Below, piece after piece: positions 177-24,196 of a stretch of DNA of 63,268 bases. Source of the DNA: Candidatus Saccharimonadia bacterium (lineage in GTDB: Bacteria; Patescibacteriota; Saccharimonadia; UBA4664; JBIOIQ01); the NCBI GenBank assembly GCA_044449985.1, contig JBIOIQ010000005.1:1-63268 (forward strand). Reading direction: 5' to 3'. Within the stretch, counting starts at the first letter, position 1. Each line of letters begins with the position of its first letter. A program made the position numbers and the translations under genes. A model generated the notes under the pieces. The model did no database searches. It worked only from the letters and a program-made list of their open reading frames with translations, and was not told the origin of the DNA.

Positions 177-420
177 CTTTAGTAATTACGTAGATCAAAA
201 GAAATACTGATTTTTATGGTTATTACTTAGTTATATTTGTTAATTTATTGGACTTTTAGACACCGTAATTTGTCTTATAATTTGGGTAAATATACTCTTG
301 ACCGACCGTTTTAATCCGTGGTAAAGTTGAGAGCGGTCATAACGGAGCCATGTATGAGTAGACAACAAACCAGCCACGGAGCCGCATCGATTAGCGAGTA
401 GTTGCCTTTTCTTATGTGAG

Positions 421-449
421 CTCCGCCCAGGTACACCACCGAAGCGGAG
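421..449 (+). promoter_or_regulatory. boxB-like hairpin in rRNA leader
   Basis: CTCCGC (421-426) pairs with GCGGAG (444-449). The hairpin lies directly upstream of a boxA-like sequence, as in rrn antitermination leaders. Confidence 0.35.
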
Positions 450-457
450 TTTTAAGT

Positions 458-468
458 TACTTTAACAA
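458..468 (+). promoter_or_regulatory. boxA-like rRNA antitermination element
   Basis: TACTTTAACAA matches the core of the E. coli rrn boxA (TGCTCTTTAACAA). It sits ~170 nt upstream of the 23S 5' end. Confidence 0.5.
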
Positions 469-613
469 ACAACGATACTTTTTAGATTTTCTATTTTTTA
501 GAAAATCTATTACGTTAAATCGTTCATAGAATTTAGATTAACGAAAGTTAATCTGGGTAAATGACAATTTCAACGAATCATTAAAAAGATTCAAATTGTG
601 TACTGGTAATTTG

Positions 614-637
614 TTTATACAAATTGCTAGTCAAACT
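614..637 (+). other. 5' strand of the 23S processing (RNase III-type) stem
   Basis: CAAATTGCTAGTCAAAC (620-636) is the perfect reverse complement of 4977-4993. Flanking A-U and G.U pairs extend the helix. Confidence 0.8.
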
Positions 638-914
638 CTTGTAAGAAAGTTACTTAAGGGCGCATGAAGGATGCCTTGACGTAAAGTACCGACGAAGGGC
701 GTAGAAGGCTGCGATAAGCCTCGGTGAGCTGCCAATCAAGCTTTGACCCGGGGATTTCCGAATGGGGCAACCCAGTACGGGTAATACCGTATTACCATCA
801 TCTGAATATATAGGATGATCGGAGGGCACGTTGTGAACTGAAACATCTTAGTAGCAACAGGAAGAGAGAGAAACCTCAATTCCCCAAGTAGCGGCGAGCG
901 AACAGGGAAGAGCC

Positions 915-1095
915 AAAACTTTTTAATTTTTCGCAAGTTTACTTGCGAATAAGCTGACAGGCGAATAATTAAAAAGGGTTGTGAGACTACAAACGACCAT
1001 TAAAGAGCACTGTTACAGTTAATCTGGCAAAAGTGGTCTTTAATGTGACGGAACCGCTGTCACGGACCGGTAAGGTAAGAAAATTAGAGATTAAT
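915..1095 (+). other. AT-rich expansion block in 23S domain I (~145-180 extra nt)
   Basis: About 180 nt lie between the GAGCC and GGAAGGATCTGGAAAG landmarks, versus ~36 nt in E. coli. The block has internal stems, for example CTTTTTAATT/AATTAAAAAG. Confidence 0.6.
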
Positions 1096-2526
1096 GGAAG
1101 GATCTGGAAAGTTCCGCCAAAGAGAGTGAAAGCCTCGTACATGAAAACCTCTAGTCCTTATGTTTGTTTTCTCGAGTAGGTCGGGACACGTGAAACCCTG
1201 ACTGAATCTGGGAGGACCACCTCCCAAGGCTAAATATACTTTACGATCGATAGCGAACAAGTACCGTGAGGGAAAGGCGAAAAGAACCCCGGAAGGGGAG
1301 TGAAATAGAACCTGAAATCATGTGCCTACAATGAGTCAGAGCAGATTTATTCTGTGATGGCGTGCTTTTTGTAGAACGATCCAGCGAGTTAATTTACAGT
1401 GCGTTAGGTTAAGCCATATGGCGGAGCCGTAGTGAAAGCGAGGGTTAATAACCCGAATTAGTACTGTGGATTAGACCCGAAACCGGGTGACCTAACCATG
1501 GGCAGGCTGAAGCGTAGGTAACACTACGTGGAGGGCCGAACCAGGGACAGTTACAAATGTCTTGGATGACCTGTGGTTAGCGGAGAAATTCCAATCGAAC
1601 TCGGAGATAGCTGGTTCTCGTCGAAATAGCTTTAGGGCTAGCGTCATAAACTACCTCCTGGGGGTAGAGCTCTGTTTGGGTTAGGGCCAGCAATGGTACC
1701 ACGCCCTGGCAAACTGCGAATACCGGGAGAGACTATTATGGCAGTCAGAAAGTGGGGGCTAAGCTCCATTTTCAAAAGGAAAACAGTCCAGACCGCCGTC
1801 TAAGGCCCCTAAATTCTAGCTAAGTGGGAAACGATGTGGAGATGCATAAACAACCAGGATGTGGGCTTAGAAGCAGCCATGCATTTAAAGAGTGCGTAAC
1901 AGCTCACTGGTCAATTGTGACTCTGCGCGGAAAATATAACGGGGCTCAAGCTAGATGCCGAAGACGCGGACTTCGTACGCAAGTACGGATTGGTAGACGA
2001 GCGTTCCTCGTGTTGTGAAGCCGAGCCGGAAGGCCAGGTGGAATGCGGGGAAGTGAGAATGCTGGAATAAGTAACCATAAGTCGGGTGAGAATCCCGACC
2101 ACCGAAAGAGCAAGGTTTCCTGGGCAACGATTATCGTCCCAGGGTTAGTCGGGCCTAAGCCGAGGCGAGTAGCGTAGGCGATGGACAACGGATTAATATT
2201 TCCGTACCGGCGACGATGTTGTCTATGATTGCGCGGCGTGGTAGCTCGAGCGGATTTTTGGCTATATCCGTCCAAGCAGGTAGTCTGCCGTAAGGCAGGT
2301 GAGACGCAAATGAAACGGCCGTAAAAGGCTGAATTCGAGCAAGCCAAGCTGACCAGAAAAGATCATAGATGTATGAAATCGTAGCCGCCCGTACCGCAAA
2401 CCGACTCAGGTGCTCAGGTCGAGTAGACCAAGGTGTACGAGAGAACCCTCGTTAAGGAACTCGGCAATACAGCGACCGTAACTTCGGGATAAGGTCTGCC
2501 GGGGCGCTCTTCACTTTGTGAAGTGC

Positions 2527-2605
2527 AATTCCCTAAATTGAAAGTATTTTTTTCTTGAATCAAAAGAATACTACGTGTAAAGAAAGAAGACATTGTTAAG
2601 CTCAT
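2527..2605 (+). other. AT-rich expansion block in 23S domain IV variable helix (~70 extra nt)
   Basis: The region between AACTTCGGGATAAGG and GCGACTGTTTAGCAAAAACACAGG is about twice the E. coli length. Confidence 0.5.
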
Positions 2606-2799
2606 TACACAGTGATGAGCGTCTCGGCCGCAGCAAAAGAGCCCATGCGACTGTTTAGCAAAAACACAGGTCTGTGCTAAAGCGAAAGCTGATGTATACG
2701 GACTGACGCCTGCCCGGTGCTGGAAGGTTAAGTGGAGAGGTGCAAGCTTTGAAATGAAGCCCCAGTAAACGGCGGCGATAACTATAATCGTCCTAAGGT

Positions 2800-3114
2800 A
2801 GGATAAAGCTGCTTTAGTGAGGTGAGAGCCCTCCTCTAGTTTTACCTCTGTGCAGAGGTTTTAAGAGAAAATCTGGCTATATGCTGGAAAACCCGTGAAT
2901 CCTGGACTAGTCAGAATGCTTCACTGCATACTGACTGACAATGTTATAGGTGCGGATGATCAGCAGGAAAGATTTGATTATAAATCAAATATCCTCAGAG
3001 ACTACACGCCGGATCTGCTTTAATAGGCAGAAAGATATAGTCCGAACTGTTTGGCGACAAACAGACTACGAGATAGCTAAAGTCACGTAGCACGAAATAT
3101 CGTGTAACAAATTA
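2800..3114 (+). ncRNA. Group I intron without ORF in 23S at about E. coli U1931 (boundaries +/-2 nt)
   Basis: It interrupts CCTAAGGT|AGCGAAATTCC. Exon CTAAGGT (2793-2799) pairs with intron GCTTTAG (2811-2817), giving U2799.G2811 at the splice site. The core motif CAGAGACTACA...AAAGATATAGTCC (J8/7-P7) is present. Confidence 0.8.
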
Positions 3115-3134
3115 AGCGAAATTCCTTGTCGGGT

Positions 3135-3848
3135 AAGACAAGGCAACCCGTGTTAAATACGGGAAGTGAACTTGCCCATGCTGGCTAATAACGGTGAAAC
3201 CCTATTGCTTGTTCGTATTATGTTCGGTAAATTGAACATATGATTTCAATCAAGGGTAATACCGTGGGAAGTCGTCCAACATGTTGGATTGACCCCGTAA
3301 CGACTAAGTCGAAAGACGCGATAGTGGCTACTACTCCTGATGGAGTAAATTTATGGCTACTATAATACGCCGGCCTCAGACCTATATTGCCCCATATTTC
3401 TCAGGTTTTATCGATGGCGAAGGCTGTTTTACAGTTTCAGTTAGTCGAAGAGCAAAGATGAATATGGGCTGGGAAGTTAGACCAAGTTTTTCAGTAAGTC
3501 AGAATAAAGATAGAGCAAATGTGCTGTATCTGATGATGGATTATTTTCAATGTGGTTCAATCCGTCCGGATCGATCCGATAATACTTTGAAATATGAAGT
3601 TAGATCGCTTACGAAGCTTACAGATAACATTATTCCTCATTTTGAGGAATATCCTTTGCTTTCTAGTAAACAAAATTCATTTCAGGCTTTTAAAAAGATC
3701 TGTTTAGAAATGCAAGATGGCAAACATTTGTCACCGAAACATTTAAACTCGATTTTACAAAGAGCAGAAATGATTAACGGCGGAAAACGCAAGTATAGAT
3801 TTGGGAAGATATAGTCTGGTCCTACGAGTAATCGTAGACACGGAATCG
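3135..3848 (+). mobile_element. Group I intron with LAGLIDADG homing endonuclease gene in 23S at E. coli U1951
   Basis: It interrupts TTGTCGGGT|AAGTTCCGACCTGCACGAATGG. The guide sequence GAACTTGCCC (3168-3177) pairs GCCC with the 5' exon GGGT (U.G at the splice site) and GAACTT with the 3' exon AAGTTC. The intron ends in G3848 and carries the core motif GGAAGATATAGTC. Confidence 0.9.
3353..3814 (+). CDS. LAGLIDADG homing endonuclease, single-motif (I-CreI-like homodimer type), intron-encoded
   Basis: The 153-aa protein has the motif YFSGFIDGEGCF near the N-terminus. GGAG lies 7 nt upstream of the ATG, and the ORF sits inside the L1951 intron. Confidence 0.9.
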   Translation: MATIIRRPQTYIAPYFSGFIDGEGCFTVSVSRRAKMNMGWEVRPSFSVSQNKDRANVLYLMMDYFQCGSIRPDRSDNTLKYEVRSLTKLTDNIIPHFEEYPLLSSKQNSFQAFKKICLEMQDGKHLSPKHLNSILQRAEMINGGKRKYRFGKI

Positions 3849-4107
3849 AAGTTCCGACCTGCACGAATGGCGTAACGATATGGGCACTGTCTCAACGAGG
3901 GACTCGGTGAAATTGTATTAGCGGTAAAGATACCGTTTACCCGCACCAAGACGGAAAGACCCCGTGGAGCTTTACTACAACTTGGCATTGGGCCGAGTTG
4001 CGACATGTGTAGAATAGGTGGGAGGCTTTGAAGCGTCGGCGCTAGCCGATGTGGAGCCGCAATATGAAATACCACCCTTGCTGTAACTTGTGTCCTAACC
4101 AGTGCCG

Positions 4108-4214
4108 CAAATTGCGCATAAAAGTTGGATCAGAGTAGAGAGCATCCAAATGGTCCGACTAAATATTACTTTCAAATGGTTTTTACATACCTTTTGTTAA
4201 ATTATGCTCAATTT
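4108..4214 (+). other. 107-nt AT-rich insertion capping a 23S domain V helix (E. coli ~2200-2225 region)
   Basis: The conserved stem CAGTGCCG/CGGCACTG (4100-4107/4216-4223) encloses 107 nt, where E. coli has a short hairpin loop. Confidence 0.6.
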
Positions 4215-4599
4215 CCGGCACTGGAACAGTGTCTGGTGGGTAGTTTAACTGGGGCGGTTGCCTCCCAAAGAGTAACGGAGGCGTTCAAAGGTTGGCTAGG
4301 TTCGGATGGAAATCGAACCGATAGTGCAAACGCAGAAGCCAGCTTGACTGTGAGGCCTACAAGCCGATCAGGTACGAAAGTAGGAGTTAGTGATCCGCTG
4401 CAAATTAGTCCCGATGCTTTTGTGTCGGGATGCGAAAGTGGAATCTGCAGCGCTCAACGGACAAAAGTTACCCCGGGGATAACAGGCTTATAGCGCCCAA
4501 GCGTCCACAGCGACGGCGCTGTTTGGCACCTCGATGTCGGCTCGTCCTATCCTGGGGGGGAAGCACCTCCCAAGGGTTTGGCTGTTCGCCAATGAAAAG

Positions 4600-4647
<48 letters not shown>

Positions 4648-4975
4648 TGGTGTGGGCGTAAGGAAATTTGAGAGGAGTGACTCCTAGTACGAGAGGACCG
4701 GAGTGAACGAACCTCTGGTGTATCGGTTGTTCTGCCAAGGGCTTCGCCGAGTAGCTATGTTCGGACGAGATAAGCGCTGAAAGCATATAAGCGCGAAACT
4801 TACCTCAAGATTAGATTTCCCAATCAGACCCCATGTAGACTACGTGGTTGATAGGCACTAGGTGTAAGCACAGTAATGTGTTCAGCCGAGGTGTACTAAT
4901 AGGTCGAATGACTTTTTTACAAAACTTTTTTTGTCATATTGTCGATTTTTTGGGCAAAATGGCGCTAAAAGTATT

Positions 4976-22924: not shown

Positions 22925-23185
22925 ATGTATACGGTTTTTGTGAATTTATATAACCAATTTTTGGTCATTTTTCCTGCTCAACTTCAGTGGTTAGTAACTC
23001 TATTGATCATTGTTGGCCTGGTTGCGGCTTTTGTGTCGCTCTTAAGACATAATCTTTTGTTTGCAATTATCCTCATCGTGTTGCTGCCTTTTATTGCACC
23101 AATAGTGCAGCACTTTTTTACTGATCTGTATCATTTCTTGCTTTTTTTAATCAACCAACTCGCCAAAACGGCCCCACGCCAATAA
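22925..23185 (+). CDS. Small integral membrane protein, unknown function
   Basis: 86 aa, almost entirely hydrophobic, with 2-3 TM segments. It follows the SPFH gene. Confidence 0.5.
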   Translation: MYTVFVNLYNQFLVIFPAQLQWLVTLLIIVGLVAAFVSLLRHNLLFAIILIVLLPFIAPIVQHFFTDLYHFLLFLINQLAKTAPRQ

Positions 23186-23226: not shown

Positions 23227-23256
23227 TTGACAGAATTATCAGCACTTGACTATAAT
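23227..23256 (+). promoter_or_regulatory. Consensus sigma70 promoter (TTGACA-18-TATAAT)
   Basis: Perfect -35 (23227-23232) and perfect -10 (23251-23256) with an 18-nt spacer. Confidence 0.7.
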
Positions 23257-23312
23257 CCTTCCAACCGGGTGAAATACATCTGGTTTCTCGTGAGTCTAGA
23301 AGGAGGGGGCTG

Positions 23313-23606
23313 GTGCCAAATCCAGCACGGCTGCATCTCGTGACTCCGCCGGTGAGCATCAAATCACCGACGAAAGAAGAGATTGCAGCTCAAATCTCCC
23401 AGTTGGTTGAGCAGGCGGGGGCCAAGGTCACCCGAATCCCTGTTCGAAAGCTGAAGCGAGAGCAACTCTTACGCATGCTCCGGGTTCTCCAGGGCAGCGT
23501 GACGACTGTTCGCCGAGGCGAGTGGCTAAATGCCCAGCAGTGTCTGGGTGAGCTACCGCCGATCTCGGCGAGGGTGTATGTGTCGCGACCGATGAGTCTG
23601 GTATGA
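23313..23606 (+). CDS. Hypothetical 97-aa protein in a GC-rich cassette
   Basis: GTG start 6 nt after AGGAGG (23301-23306). I counted 36/60 G+C at the ORF start versus 17/60 in the neighbouring gene. Confidence 0.5.
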   Translation: MPNPARLHLVTPPVSIKSPTKEEIAAQISQLVEQAGAKVTRIPVRKLKREQLLRMLRVLQGSVTTVRRGEWLNAQQCLGELPPISARVYVSRPMSLV

Positions 23607-23758
23607 ACTCGGCTGCATCGGTGGACGCAACGACATGTGAGCAGCGGGATCTGCCGACAGACGAAATCCCGACCTCGCGCAGGAAACCGCAGACGAACCG
23701 ACGACCTCGTTTCGTGCGGCTACAGCGGACCCCCCTTTCGAAGGGAAAAATCCGCTAA
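23603..23758 (+). CDS. Possible 51-aa Arg/Lys-rich ORF translationally coupled to the preceding ORF
   Basis: Its ATG (23603-23605) overlaps the TGA (23604-23606) of the upstream ORF as ATGA. The GC-rich zone ends at its stop codon. It is not in the track because it is under 60 aa. Confidence 0.35.
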   Translation: MNSAASVDATTCEQRDLPTDEIPTSRRKPQTNRRPRFVRLQRTPLSKGKIR

Positions 23759-23803
23759 GAGTTTGGCGCTACCTATTCGTCTTAAGGAAGAGATGAATGT
23801 TTT

Positions 23804-23850
23804 GGCCCCGTTACTGAAATGGATTTTAGTGACGGGGCCGCCTTTTTTTA
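23804..23850 (+). terminator. Strong intrinsic terminator
   Basis: GGCCCCGTTACT (23804-23815) pairs with AGTGACGGGGCC (23828-23839), 12 bp including one G.U. A T7 run follows (23843-23849). Confidence 0.85.
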
Positions 23851-23863
23851 TTACACTTGCAGT

Positions 23864-24196
23864 ATGGAAGATTGTTTATTTTGTAAAATAGCAAACTCCG
23901 ATCCGAGTGAACTCGTTTGGCAAAATGAATATGTATCGGCATTTAAGGATATTCATCCTAAAGCGTCGGTGCACGTTTTGATAGTGCCAAGAAGTCATGT
24001 TGCAAATCTTGATGACTTAACTGATAAAACTTTAGCGTCCGAATTGTTTAGCTCAATTGCGGAAATTGCCAAATTATTAGGCGTCTCTGGGGCATACCGA
24101 ATTCAGGTAAATAACGGCCAGTCGGCGGGGCAAGTAATACAGCATCTGCATGTTCACCTTCTGGGGGGCGCAAAATTACCGAAATCTCTAGTCTAA
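23864..24196 (+). CDS. HIT family (histidine triad) nucleotide hydrolase/transferase
   Basis: MEDCLFCKI N-terminus and the histidine triad HLHVHLLGG. I prefer the ATG at 23864 because the track start at 23819 lies inside the terminator hairpin. Confidence 0.88.
   Translation: MEDCLFCKIANSDPSELVWQNEYVSAFKDIHPKASVHVLIVPRSHVANLDDLTDKTLASELFSSIAEIAKLLGVSGAYRIQVNNGQSAGQVIQHLHVHLLGGAKLPKSLV

Follow-up and report, generated by a model that had tools for sequence, protein, structure and literature searches.

A self-contained GC-rich transcription unit upstream of the HIT gene in a Saccharibacteria genome, with a candidate gene for a small basic orphan protein

Contig JBIOIQ010000005.1 of a Candidatus Saccharimonadia bacterium (assembly GCA_044449985.1) was analysed over its 63,268 nucleotides, hereafter called the window. 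Directly upstream of the HIT gene, positions 23227-23850 of the + strand form a GC-rich unit that contains a consensus promoter, an open reading frame (ORF) of 97 codons (ORF97), a shorter frame of 51 codons (ORF51) and an intrinsic terminator. The explanation that we favour, with a confidence that stands about midway, is that this unit is a self-contained, strongly promoted, lineage-specific orphan gene for a 97-residue basic protein, which evolves fast and lies in a variable slot of the genome. In such a gene, the unit would be transcribed independently and at a high level, and ORF97 would be translated into a cytoplasmic, basic and partly helical small protein.

Results

Expression signals of the unit

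The promoter of the unit is a perfect match to the sigma-70-type consensus and the only perfect TTGACA-N18-TATAAT in the 63-kb window, where 0.03 copies are expected by chance. Transcription would start at about 23263. The Shine-Dalgarno sequence AGGAGG is well placed in front of the GTG codon of ORF97; of the eight AGGAGG copies on the + strand, three stand in front of the start codon of an ORF with 50 amino acids or more, and this is one of them. The features of the unit are the following.

23227-23256, + strand: sigma-70-type consensus promoter TTGACA-N18-TATAAT (scan score 12/12)
23263-23312, + strand: putative 5' untranslated region, with a 5' hairpin (ACCGGGUG/CAUCUGGU) and the Shine-Dalgarno sequence (from sequence and fold)
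23301-23306, + strand: Shine-Dalgarno sequence AGGAGG, 6 nt upstream of the GTG at 23313
23307-23323, + strand: 5' arm of a predicted long-range helix over the GUG start, partner at about 23760-23775
23313-23606, + strand: ORF97, GTG start, 97 amino acids
23603-23758, + strand: ORF51, 51 amino acids, start overlapping the ORF97 stop as ATGA
23607-23803, + strand: GC-rich 3' tail that contains an imperfect direct repeat of 20 nt and three unremarkable hairpins
23803-23850, + strand: intrinsic terminator, stem 23803-23840 with 17 pairs and a 4-nt loop, then a T7 run

The original prediction, made from the letters of the sequence alone, had described the promoter as perfect, AGGAGG as lying 6 nt before a GTG-initiated frame of 97 residues, and the stop of this frame as overlapping, as ATGA, the start of a second frame whose peptide it quoted; on all these points it was accurate. 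It had also described a compact, self-contained unit, as the presence of its own promoter, Shine-Dalgarno sequence and terminator confirms. The terminator, announced at 23804-23850 with a 12-bp stem, does exist, its stem being made of 17 pairs that begin at 23803. The promoter scan revealed no antisense promoter inside the unit, and neither flanking repeats nor mobility genes were found around it.

The start codon of HIT is located at 23864, 13 nt beyond the T-run of the terminator. No Shine-Dalgarno sequence or recognisable promoter was found for it in 23840-23866, and a weak promoter-like TTAGTG-17-TATTAC lies inside the terminator, upstream of HIT. The same tight layout recurs in two relatives, L081 and L082, which are presented below. 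HIT is probably expressed by read-through or from a near-leaderless start.

Base composition

The composition of the unit departs sharply from that of the genome. Its GC content is 0.59, compared with 0.46 for the window (45.8% overall), and the 400-nt stretch with the highest GC of the whole window lies within it (0.60 against a mean of 0.458 with a standard deviation (sd) of 0.034, i.e. about 4 sd above). Directly past 23760, the value returns to about 0.45, which agrees with the earlier statement that the GC-rich zone ends at the second stop codon; the G+C counts given with that statement (36/60 at 23313-23372 and 17/60 at 22925-22984) are exact. In ORF97, the GC content of the first, second and third codon positions (GC1/2/3) is.66/.46/.63. 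The GC3 of 0.63 exceeds that of the window genes (0.43 ± 0.025) by about 8 sd, an excess for which amino-acid content alone is insufficient. The abrupt change in composition that had been described is supported.

Coding signal and properties of ORF97

Two independent intrinsic tests, codon periodicity and a codon model, agree in favour of ORF97, and it is on this agreement that we consider it to be probably a real coding sequence. In the first test, the distribution of nucleotides over codon positions gave a chi2 of 26.9 (P=0.0007) against a null made of ORFs of at least 70 amino acids in dinucleotide shuffles (mean chi2 6.5). The median obtained for real window genes, cut into chunks of the length of ORF97, was 24.9. 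In a sliding scan, periodicity extended from about 23260 to about 23600 and then collapsed. In the second test, the model was trained on 4481 codons from Pfam-supported genes of L081 and of another relative, L165, both of similar GC content. The frame of ORF97 was the best of the six, with a z of 3.9 above shuffles, and the HIT and S21 genes of the window scored 3.5 and 4.2, respectively.

The predicted protein has an isoelectric point of 11.2, a net charge of about +9 and a grand average of hydropathy (GRAVY) of -0.13; no signal peptide and no transmembrane segment were predicted. AlphaFold2 placed helices at residues 21-34 and 49-61, and a Foldseek search with this model returned no match at E<=0.001. 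Owing to its size, its charge and this helical core, our best guess, of low confidence, is that ORF97 may be a small nucleic-acid-binding or regulatory protein. The tryptic peptides expected within it include GEWLNAQQCLGELPPISAR and EEIAAQISQLVEQAGAK.

ORF97 had no match in Pfam, NCBIfam, PHROGs, PADLOC or PDB, nor in scans of viral and metagenome sequences, nor by blastn and tblastn in phage and plasmid collections. The earlier remark had been that neither peptide carries a recognisable motif.

ORF51 and the 3' tail

The peptide encoded by ORF51, to which MNSAASVDATTCEQR belongs, is acidic in its N-terminal half and very basic in the C-terminal one. It is hydrophilic (GRAVY -1.2), disordered-looking, rich in Arg and Pro and free of transmembrane segments. 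The periodicity of ORF51 was not significant (P=0.235), a score as low as that of 17% of real coding chunks of 156 nt. In the codon model, its frame was the best of the six with z=2.1, a score to which the lack of internal stops contributes. Over the entire tail (23607-23799), no periodicity was seen (chi2=4.9, P=0.55). ORF51 is more likely to be part of an untranslated GC-rich tail than a second gene, and reinitiation at the AUGA onto ORF51 is possible. A -1 frameshift that would fuse ORF97 and ORF51 was also considered and set aside, as inspection by eye of 23552-23606 revealed no slippery heptamer. Within the tail and ORF51, the two copies of the direct repeat, 23658-23677 (CAGACGAAATCCCGACCTCG) and 23690-23709 (CAGACGAACCGACGACCTCG), are 80% identical and spaced by 32 nt.

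In the original prediction, the pair had been compared to a toxin-antitoxin-like or phage/plasmid-derived module, that is, to two ATGA-coupled genes which are both translated. We consider such a two-gene module to be highly improbable, and neither a toxin-antitoxin nature nor a phage or plasmid origin is supported. The unit shares with type II toxin-antitoxin operons two small adjacent ORFs that overlap by the 4 nt of ATGA, a promoter of its own and a presence that varies from genome to genome, and the probability of finding by chance both this overlap and a 51-codon frame is about 4% (an estimate from base composition). The best-of-six score of ORF51, the foreign composition and the different content of the slot in relatives point in the same direction. 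However, in contrast with these operons, the unit has neither a toxin or antitoxin domain according to Pfam, NCBIfam, PADLOC and PHROGs nor a mobile context: tblastn against phages and plasmids was empty too, there are no flanking repeats, integrase or mobility marks, and no donor-like sequence was detected in phages, plasmids, viral contigs, metagenomes or protein collections. Furthermore, both products are strongly basic, and ORF51, which is without a clear coding signal, has the hydrophilic Arg/Pro-rich composition typical of spurious ORFs in GC-rich DNA. The unit also differs from type I systems of the hok/sok kind, since it contains no small hydrophobic membrane toxin and no antisense promoter.

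Predicted RNA structure

When folded, the 23263-23800 segment gave a z of -5.2 on the + strand and of -2.3 on the - strand. For eighteen control segments of 538 nt, the mean was -0.7 (sd 1.1), and the sole control below -2.2 overlapped the unit itself. The value of the unit is comparable to that of a 23S rRNA segment. The source of the signal is ORF97 itself (z=-3.2) along with long-range pairing, and not the tail, which is no more stable than shuffled sequences (z=-1.0 for 23607-23803 and +0.8 for 23600-23749). The minimum-free-energy fold does contain the three hairpins that had been reported for the region of ORF51, a region which is nevertheless no more structured than the shuffles. Of the earlier alternative of a small protein gene followed by a structured 3' RNA, the protein part is retained, since ORF97 looks real, whereas the tail is not unusually structured.

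The long-range helix between 23307-23323 and about 23760-23775 is present in both the minimum-free-energy and the centroid folds, with the GC-rich zone lying between its two arms. The complementarity of these arms exceeds chance only by a small margin (P=0.04). The corresponding complementarity between start region and tail was not significant in L081 and L082, and was rejected as a conserved feature. In the favoured explanation, the heavily base-paired, GC-rich body of the mRNA probably makes the message more stable. It may also limit initiation, since the predicted long-range helix contains the start codon.

The cmscan-type check that had been proposed gave no hit to a known RNA family: Rfam 15 returned no match, whether the gathering threshold was applied or a cut-off as loose as E<=10, and nothing in the unit was detected by ARAGORN. 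The known families considered were RNase P, tmRNA, 6S, SRP, OLE, ROOL, GOLLD, HEARO, raiA and riboswitches. The units of the relatives gave no Rfam or ARAGORN match either. In L081, the unit folds with z=-5.7, and in L082 with z=-2.0, which is not unusual. The structured part varies as well, being the ORF in the window unit and the tail in L081.

Such a fold also fits a non-coding RNA, structured and large (about 590 nt), which would belong to an undescribed family and in which both ORFs would be chance products of the high GC content. The + strand value lies outside the 17 coding controls and well below that of the minus strand, the L081 unit folds strongly too, no protein homologue exists, and an ORF of at least 97 codons arose in 15% of the shuffles of the unit stretch. 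The unit is moreover a GC-rich island of a lower-GC genome, enclosed between a promoter and a terminator, and structured RNAs are known to be over-represented in long intergenic regions of high GC (PMC8632094, PMC11109978), which counts for this possibility. Screening by GC content and intergenic length has led to large GC-rich bacterial RNAs such as OLE, ROOL, GOLLD and raiA (PMC8632094, PMC11109978). The unit resembles them by its long GC-rich stretch in a lower-GC genome, its promoter, its terminator and its strong fold z, and departs from them by the presence of a coding signal and by the absence of an Rfam match and of conserved sequence; the relatives are not alignable, which makes covariation unusable. 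Periodicity and a best-of-six codon score that fall exactly in the frame led by the Shine-Dalgarno sequence are unexpected for an RNA gene. Given, in addition, the unremarkable z of the L082 unit and the different location of the structured part from one unit to another, we regard a purely non-coding RNA as unlikely.

A third possibility combines both aspects: ORF97 would be translated, and the structured RNA, body or tail, would have a regulatory role, as in S. aureus RNAIII (hld) and SgrS/SgrT, which are dual-function RNAs. The unit shares with these a transcript of about 500-600 nt, many predicted hairpins and a small ORF. It differs from them in that half of the transcript is taken up by the ORF, and it is unrelated to them in sequence. 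A coding signal and an exceptional fold z in one molecule, a GC3 raised by about 8 sd beyond what amino-acid content explains, and a non-periodic GC-rich tail of 150-400 nt in all three units would fit a dual function. We nevertheless hold it to be decidedly unlikely, because no target complementarity or conserved RNA motif was identified, the tail of the window unit is not unusually structured and the pattern is inconsistent over the three units.

The same slot in relatives

The lineage of the window has no close relative in the collections searched. Units of the same build, with a promoter, a Shine-Dalgarno sequence, a periodic ORF, a GC-rich tail and a hairpin, were found in the same slot in two contigs from distant relatives, L081, a Logan-assembled contig of 12 kb, and L082, present in ENA, JGI and Logan. 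In L081, hisS is followed by a homologue of the 86-residue membrane protein which precedes the unit in the window, a minus-strand transglycosylase gene, the unit on the + strand and HIT-S21-YqeY-YbeY. The order in L082 is transglycosylase, unit, HIT, S21. The slot is considered as orthologous on the basis of the membrane protein (48% identity, E=1e-24) and HIT (54-60% identity), followed by S21 and YqeY. The two units are organised as follows.

L081, about 1471-2266, + strand: unit with promoter 1471-1500, ORF 1548-1832 and terminator 2244-2262
L082: unit with promoter 886-914 (11/12) and ORF 949-1188, the latter led by AGGAGG-N6-TTG

In L081, the ORF is opened by AGGAGA-N8-ATG, is periodic (P=0.0005) and has GC1/2/3 values of.74/.51/.79; it is followed by a non-periodic tail with 71% GC. 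This ORF is itself an orphan. In L082, the first ORF (79 codons) is periodic (P=0.001), a second, Shine-Dalgarno-led one of 60 codons gave P=0.017, and the unit has 61% GC compared with about 50% in its neighbours. The first ORFs of L081 and L082 (79-94 codons) show the GC1>GC2<GC3 pattern, and all three units exceed their respective genomes by 10-15 GC points.

At the DNA level, the three units cannot be aligned. The resemblance that the first ORF of the window unit seemed, on inspection by eye, to bear to that of L081 was not significant in a shuffle test. Collinear tblastx matches between units were discarded as composition noise, since antiparallel pairing scored better. The idea that the unit is a remnant of the genes found in the slot of relatives (transglycosylases, a 234-residue membrane protein) was dropped, as no similarity to them was observed.

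The earlier prediction had raised the question of universal conservation at this position. The unit is in fact not universal: in L165, an NCBI metagenome-assembled genome, the hisS-SPFH...HIT-S21 order is that of the window, and the slot is occupied by two minus-strand genes. L167 was examined as a fourth counterpart and rejected, because its GC-rich stretch corresponds to a minus-strand ORF for 86 hydrophobic residues. That ORF (412-672, minus strand) lies upstream of HIT and has GC1/2/3 values of.61/.40/.66. A + strand gene that ends upstream of it has a GC-rich 3' end and a terminator of its own. With its opposite-strand ORF in this place, L167 adds to the evidence that the content of the slot is variable.

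An exact 18-mer, ATAAGCGGTATTTGTCAA, occurs at 1371-1388 in L081 and at 825-842 in L082, and also in L083, L085 and L168-L172. It overlaps the promoter of the minus-strand transglycosylase gene, within about 50 alignable bases. The HIT proteins of the lineages that share it are 52% identical, and the alignment fails immediately downstream of it, toward the GC-rich unit.

The preferred explanation and the points against it

Several of our results weigh against a lineage-specific protein-coding gene. The first is the fold of the unit, whose z of -5.2 fits a structured RNA as well. Secondly, no relative of ORF97 turned up among about 15 billion proteins. It had no match in a word-indexed collection of 5.8 billion proteins, and a full HMMER search of 1.84 billion representatives gave two matches only, to FN3 and sushi repeat proteins, which were discarded as spurious. 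ORF97 is also absent from the protein collection in which the HIT protein of the same contig is present, which indicates that automatic gene calling skipped ORF97. The AlphaFold2 model, calculated on the single sequence, is of low confidence (predicted local distance difference test, pLDDT, 53). The search of sequencing runs yielded no expression data for the window and, for L082, one soil DNA run only. Among the three units, the first ORFs have no significant similarity (P=0.3-0.99), which makes conservation and the ratio of non-synonymous to synonymous substitution rates (dN/dS) unusable. Finally, strain variants of L081 display three substitutions in the ORF of its unit, all non-synonymous; two are at predicted unpaired bases and one breaks a pair, numbers too small to decide.

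These three changes, together with the atypical codon usage of an orphan, would also suit a remnant gene, foreign or decaying, that no longer functions and whose frame is open by chance. Nevertheless, without selection a reduced genome is unlikely to retain a perfect promoter, an optimally spaced Shine-Dalgarno sequence, an intact frame of 97 codons and a strong terminator, and the same build is found in two distant lineages. A remnant therefore appears to us quite improbable.

With respect to orphan (ORFan) small-protein genes missed by gene callers, the unit is similar in having a Shine-Dalgarno-led ORF of <100 codons which is periodic, without homologues and uncalled. It is unlike them in its perfect promoter, in a GC content about 13 points above that of the genome, in the strong predicted structure of its mRNA and in the fact that its same-slot counterparts in relatives are not alignable.

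Returning to the orphan gene that we prefer, the slot between the membrane-protein gene and HIT would be one vertically kept, fast-diverging and lineage-specific locus. Three recent imports are argued against by the consistent GC excess in three lineages of differing composition and by the absence of a donor. The excess itself might result from selection on mRNA structure or from GC-biased gene conversion at a recombination-prone slot. The first of these causes is weakened by the inconsistent pattern of structure across the units.

A broader statement would be that Saccharibacteria keep, in a fixed slot upstream of HIT-rpsU, a highly expressed unit whose sequence turns over beyond recognition, each copy encoding a different small protein followed by a non-coding GC-rich tail. 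This would be a kind of locus not yet described, and we consider the generalisation unlikely. If it were true, possible causes would be a hot spot of recombination or biased gene conversion, a factor involved in interaction with the host, or a dual function as RNA and protein.

If ORF97 is translated, it adds an unannotated and probably abundant protein to the reduced genome of an episymbiont with little spare sequence, which standard gene calling would have missed because of its composition. The non-alignable, GC-elevated units found in one slot hint at an unusually fast turnover at a fixed locus, and this bears on how the reduced genomes of the candidate phyla radiation (CPR), the group of ultrasmall bacteria to which Saccharibacteria belong, generate lineage-specific functions. 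At present, the value of the observation lies mainly in an annotation correction and a lead; it is low to moderate unless turnover at a fixed position proves general.

Genomic setting

The source genome is of the Saccharibacteria (TM7) type, the closest homologues of its SPFH protein being from Saccharibacteria metagenome-assembled genomes with at most 77% identity. The gene order at the locus is hisS, SPFH/Band_7, the 86-residue membrane-protein gene, the unit, HIT, rpsU (S21), yqeY, ybeY, dgkA and adk. The nearest relatives of the window proteins are 50-77% identical (up to 87% for S21), and the best HIT homologues 54-61%. For the genes of the window itself, searching for the exact proteins retrieved no record. 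A genome scan with SPFH gave 80 loci, none of which had the synteny of the window or similarity to the unit, and the matches of a metagenome scan with HIT came mostly from gut Firmicutes. The HIT matches P0006 and P0010 were dropped, as they are not from Saccharibacteria.

The ORF for 86 hydrophobic residues, at 22925-23185, is directly upstream of the unit. It is 48% identical over 87 amino acids (E=1e-24) to the ORF that follows hisS in L081 (347-613); it belongs to no Pfam family, and its exact sequence is unrecorded in the protein collection. This sequence conservation leads us to regard it as a genuine small membrane protein.

ARAGORN found no tRNA gene in the window, in which a 5S rRNA gene is also located. 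The 23S rRNA, at 643-4920, is 4278 nt long compared with a model of 2925 nt, and probably has more than one insertion. The stretches cited for these insertions are:

2790-3064
3353-3814

Within this 23S rRNA, a group I intron (Rfam, 66.5 bits) and a 153-residue LAGLIDADG homing-endonuclease ORF (Pfam, E=2e-29) were detected.

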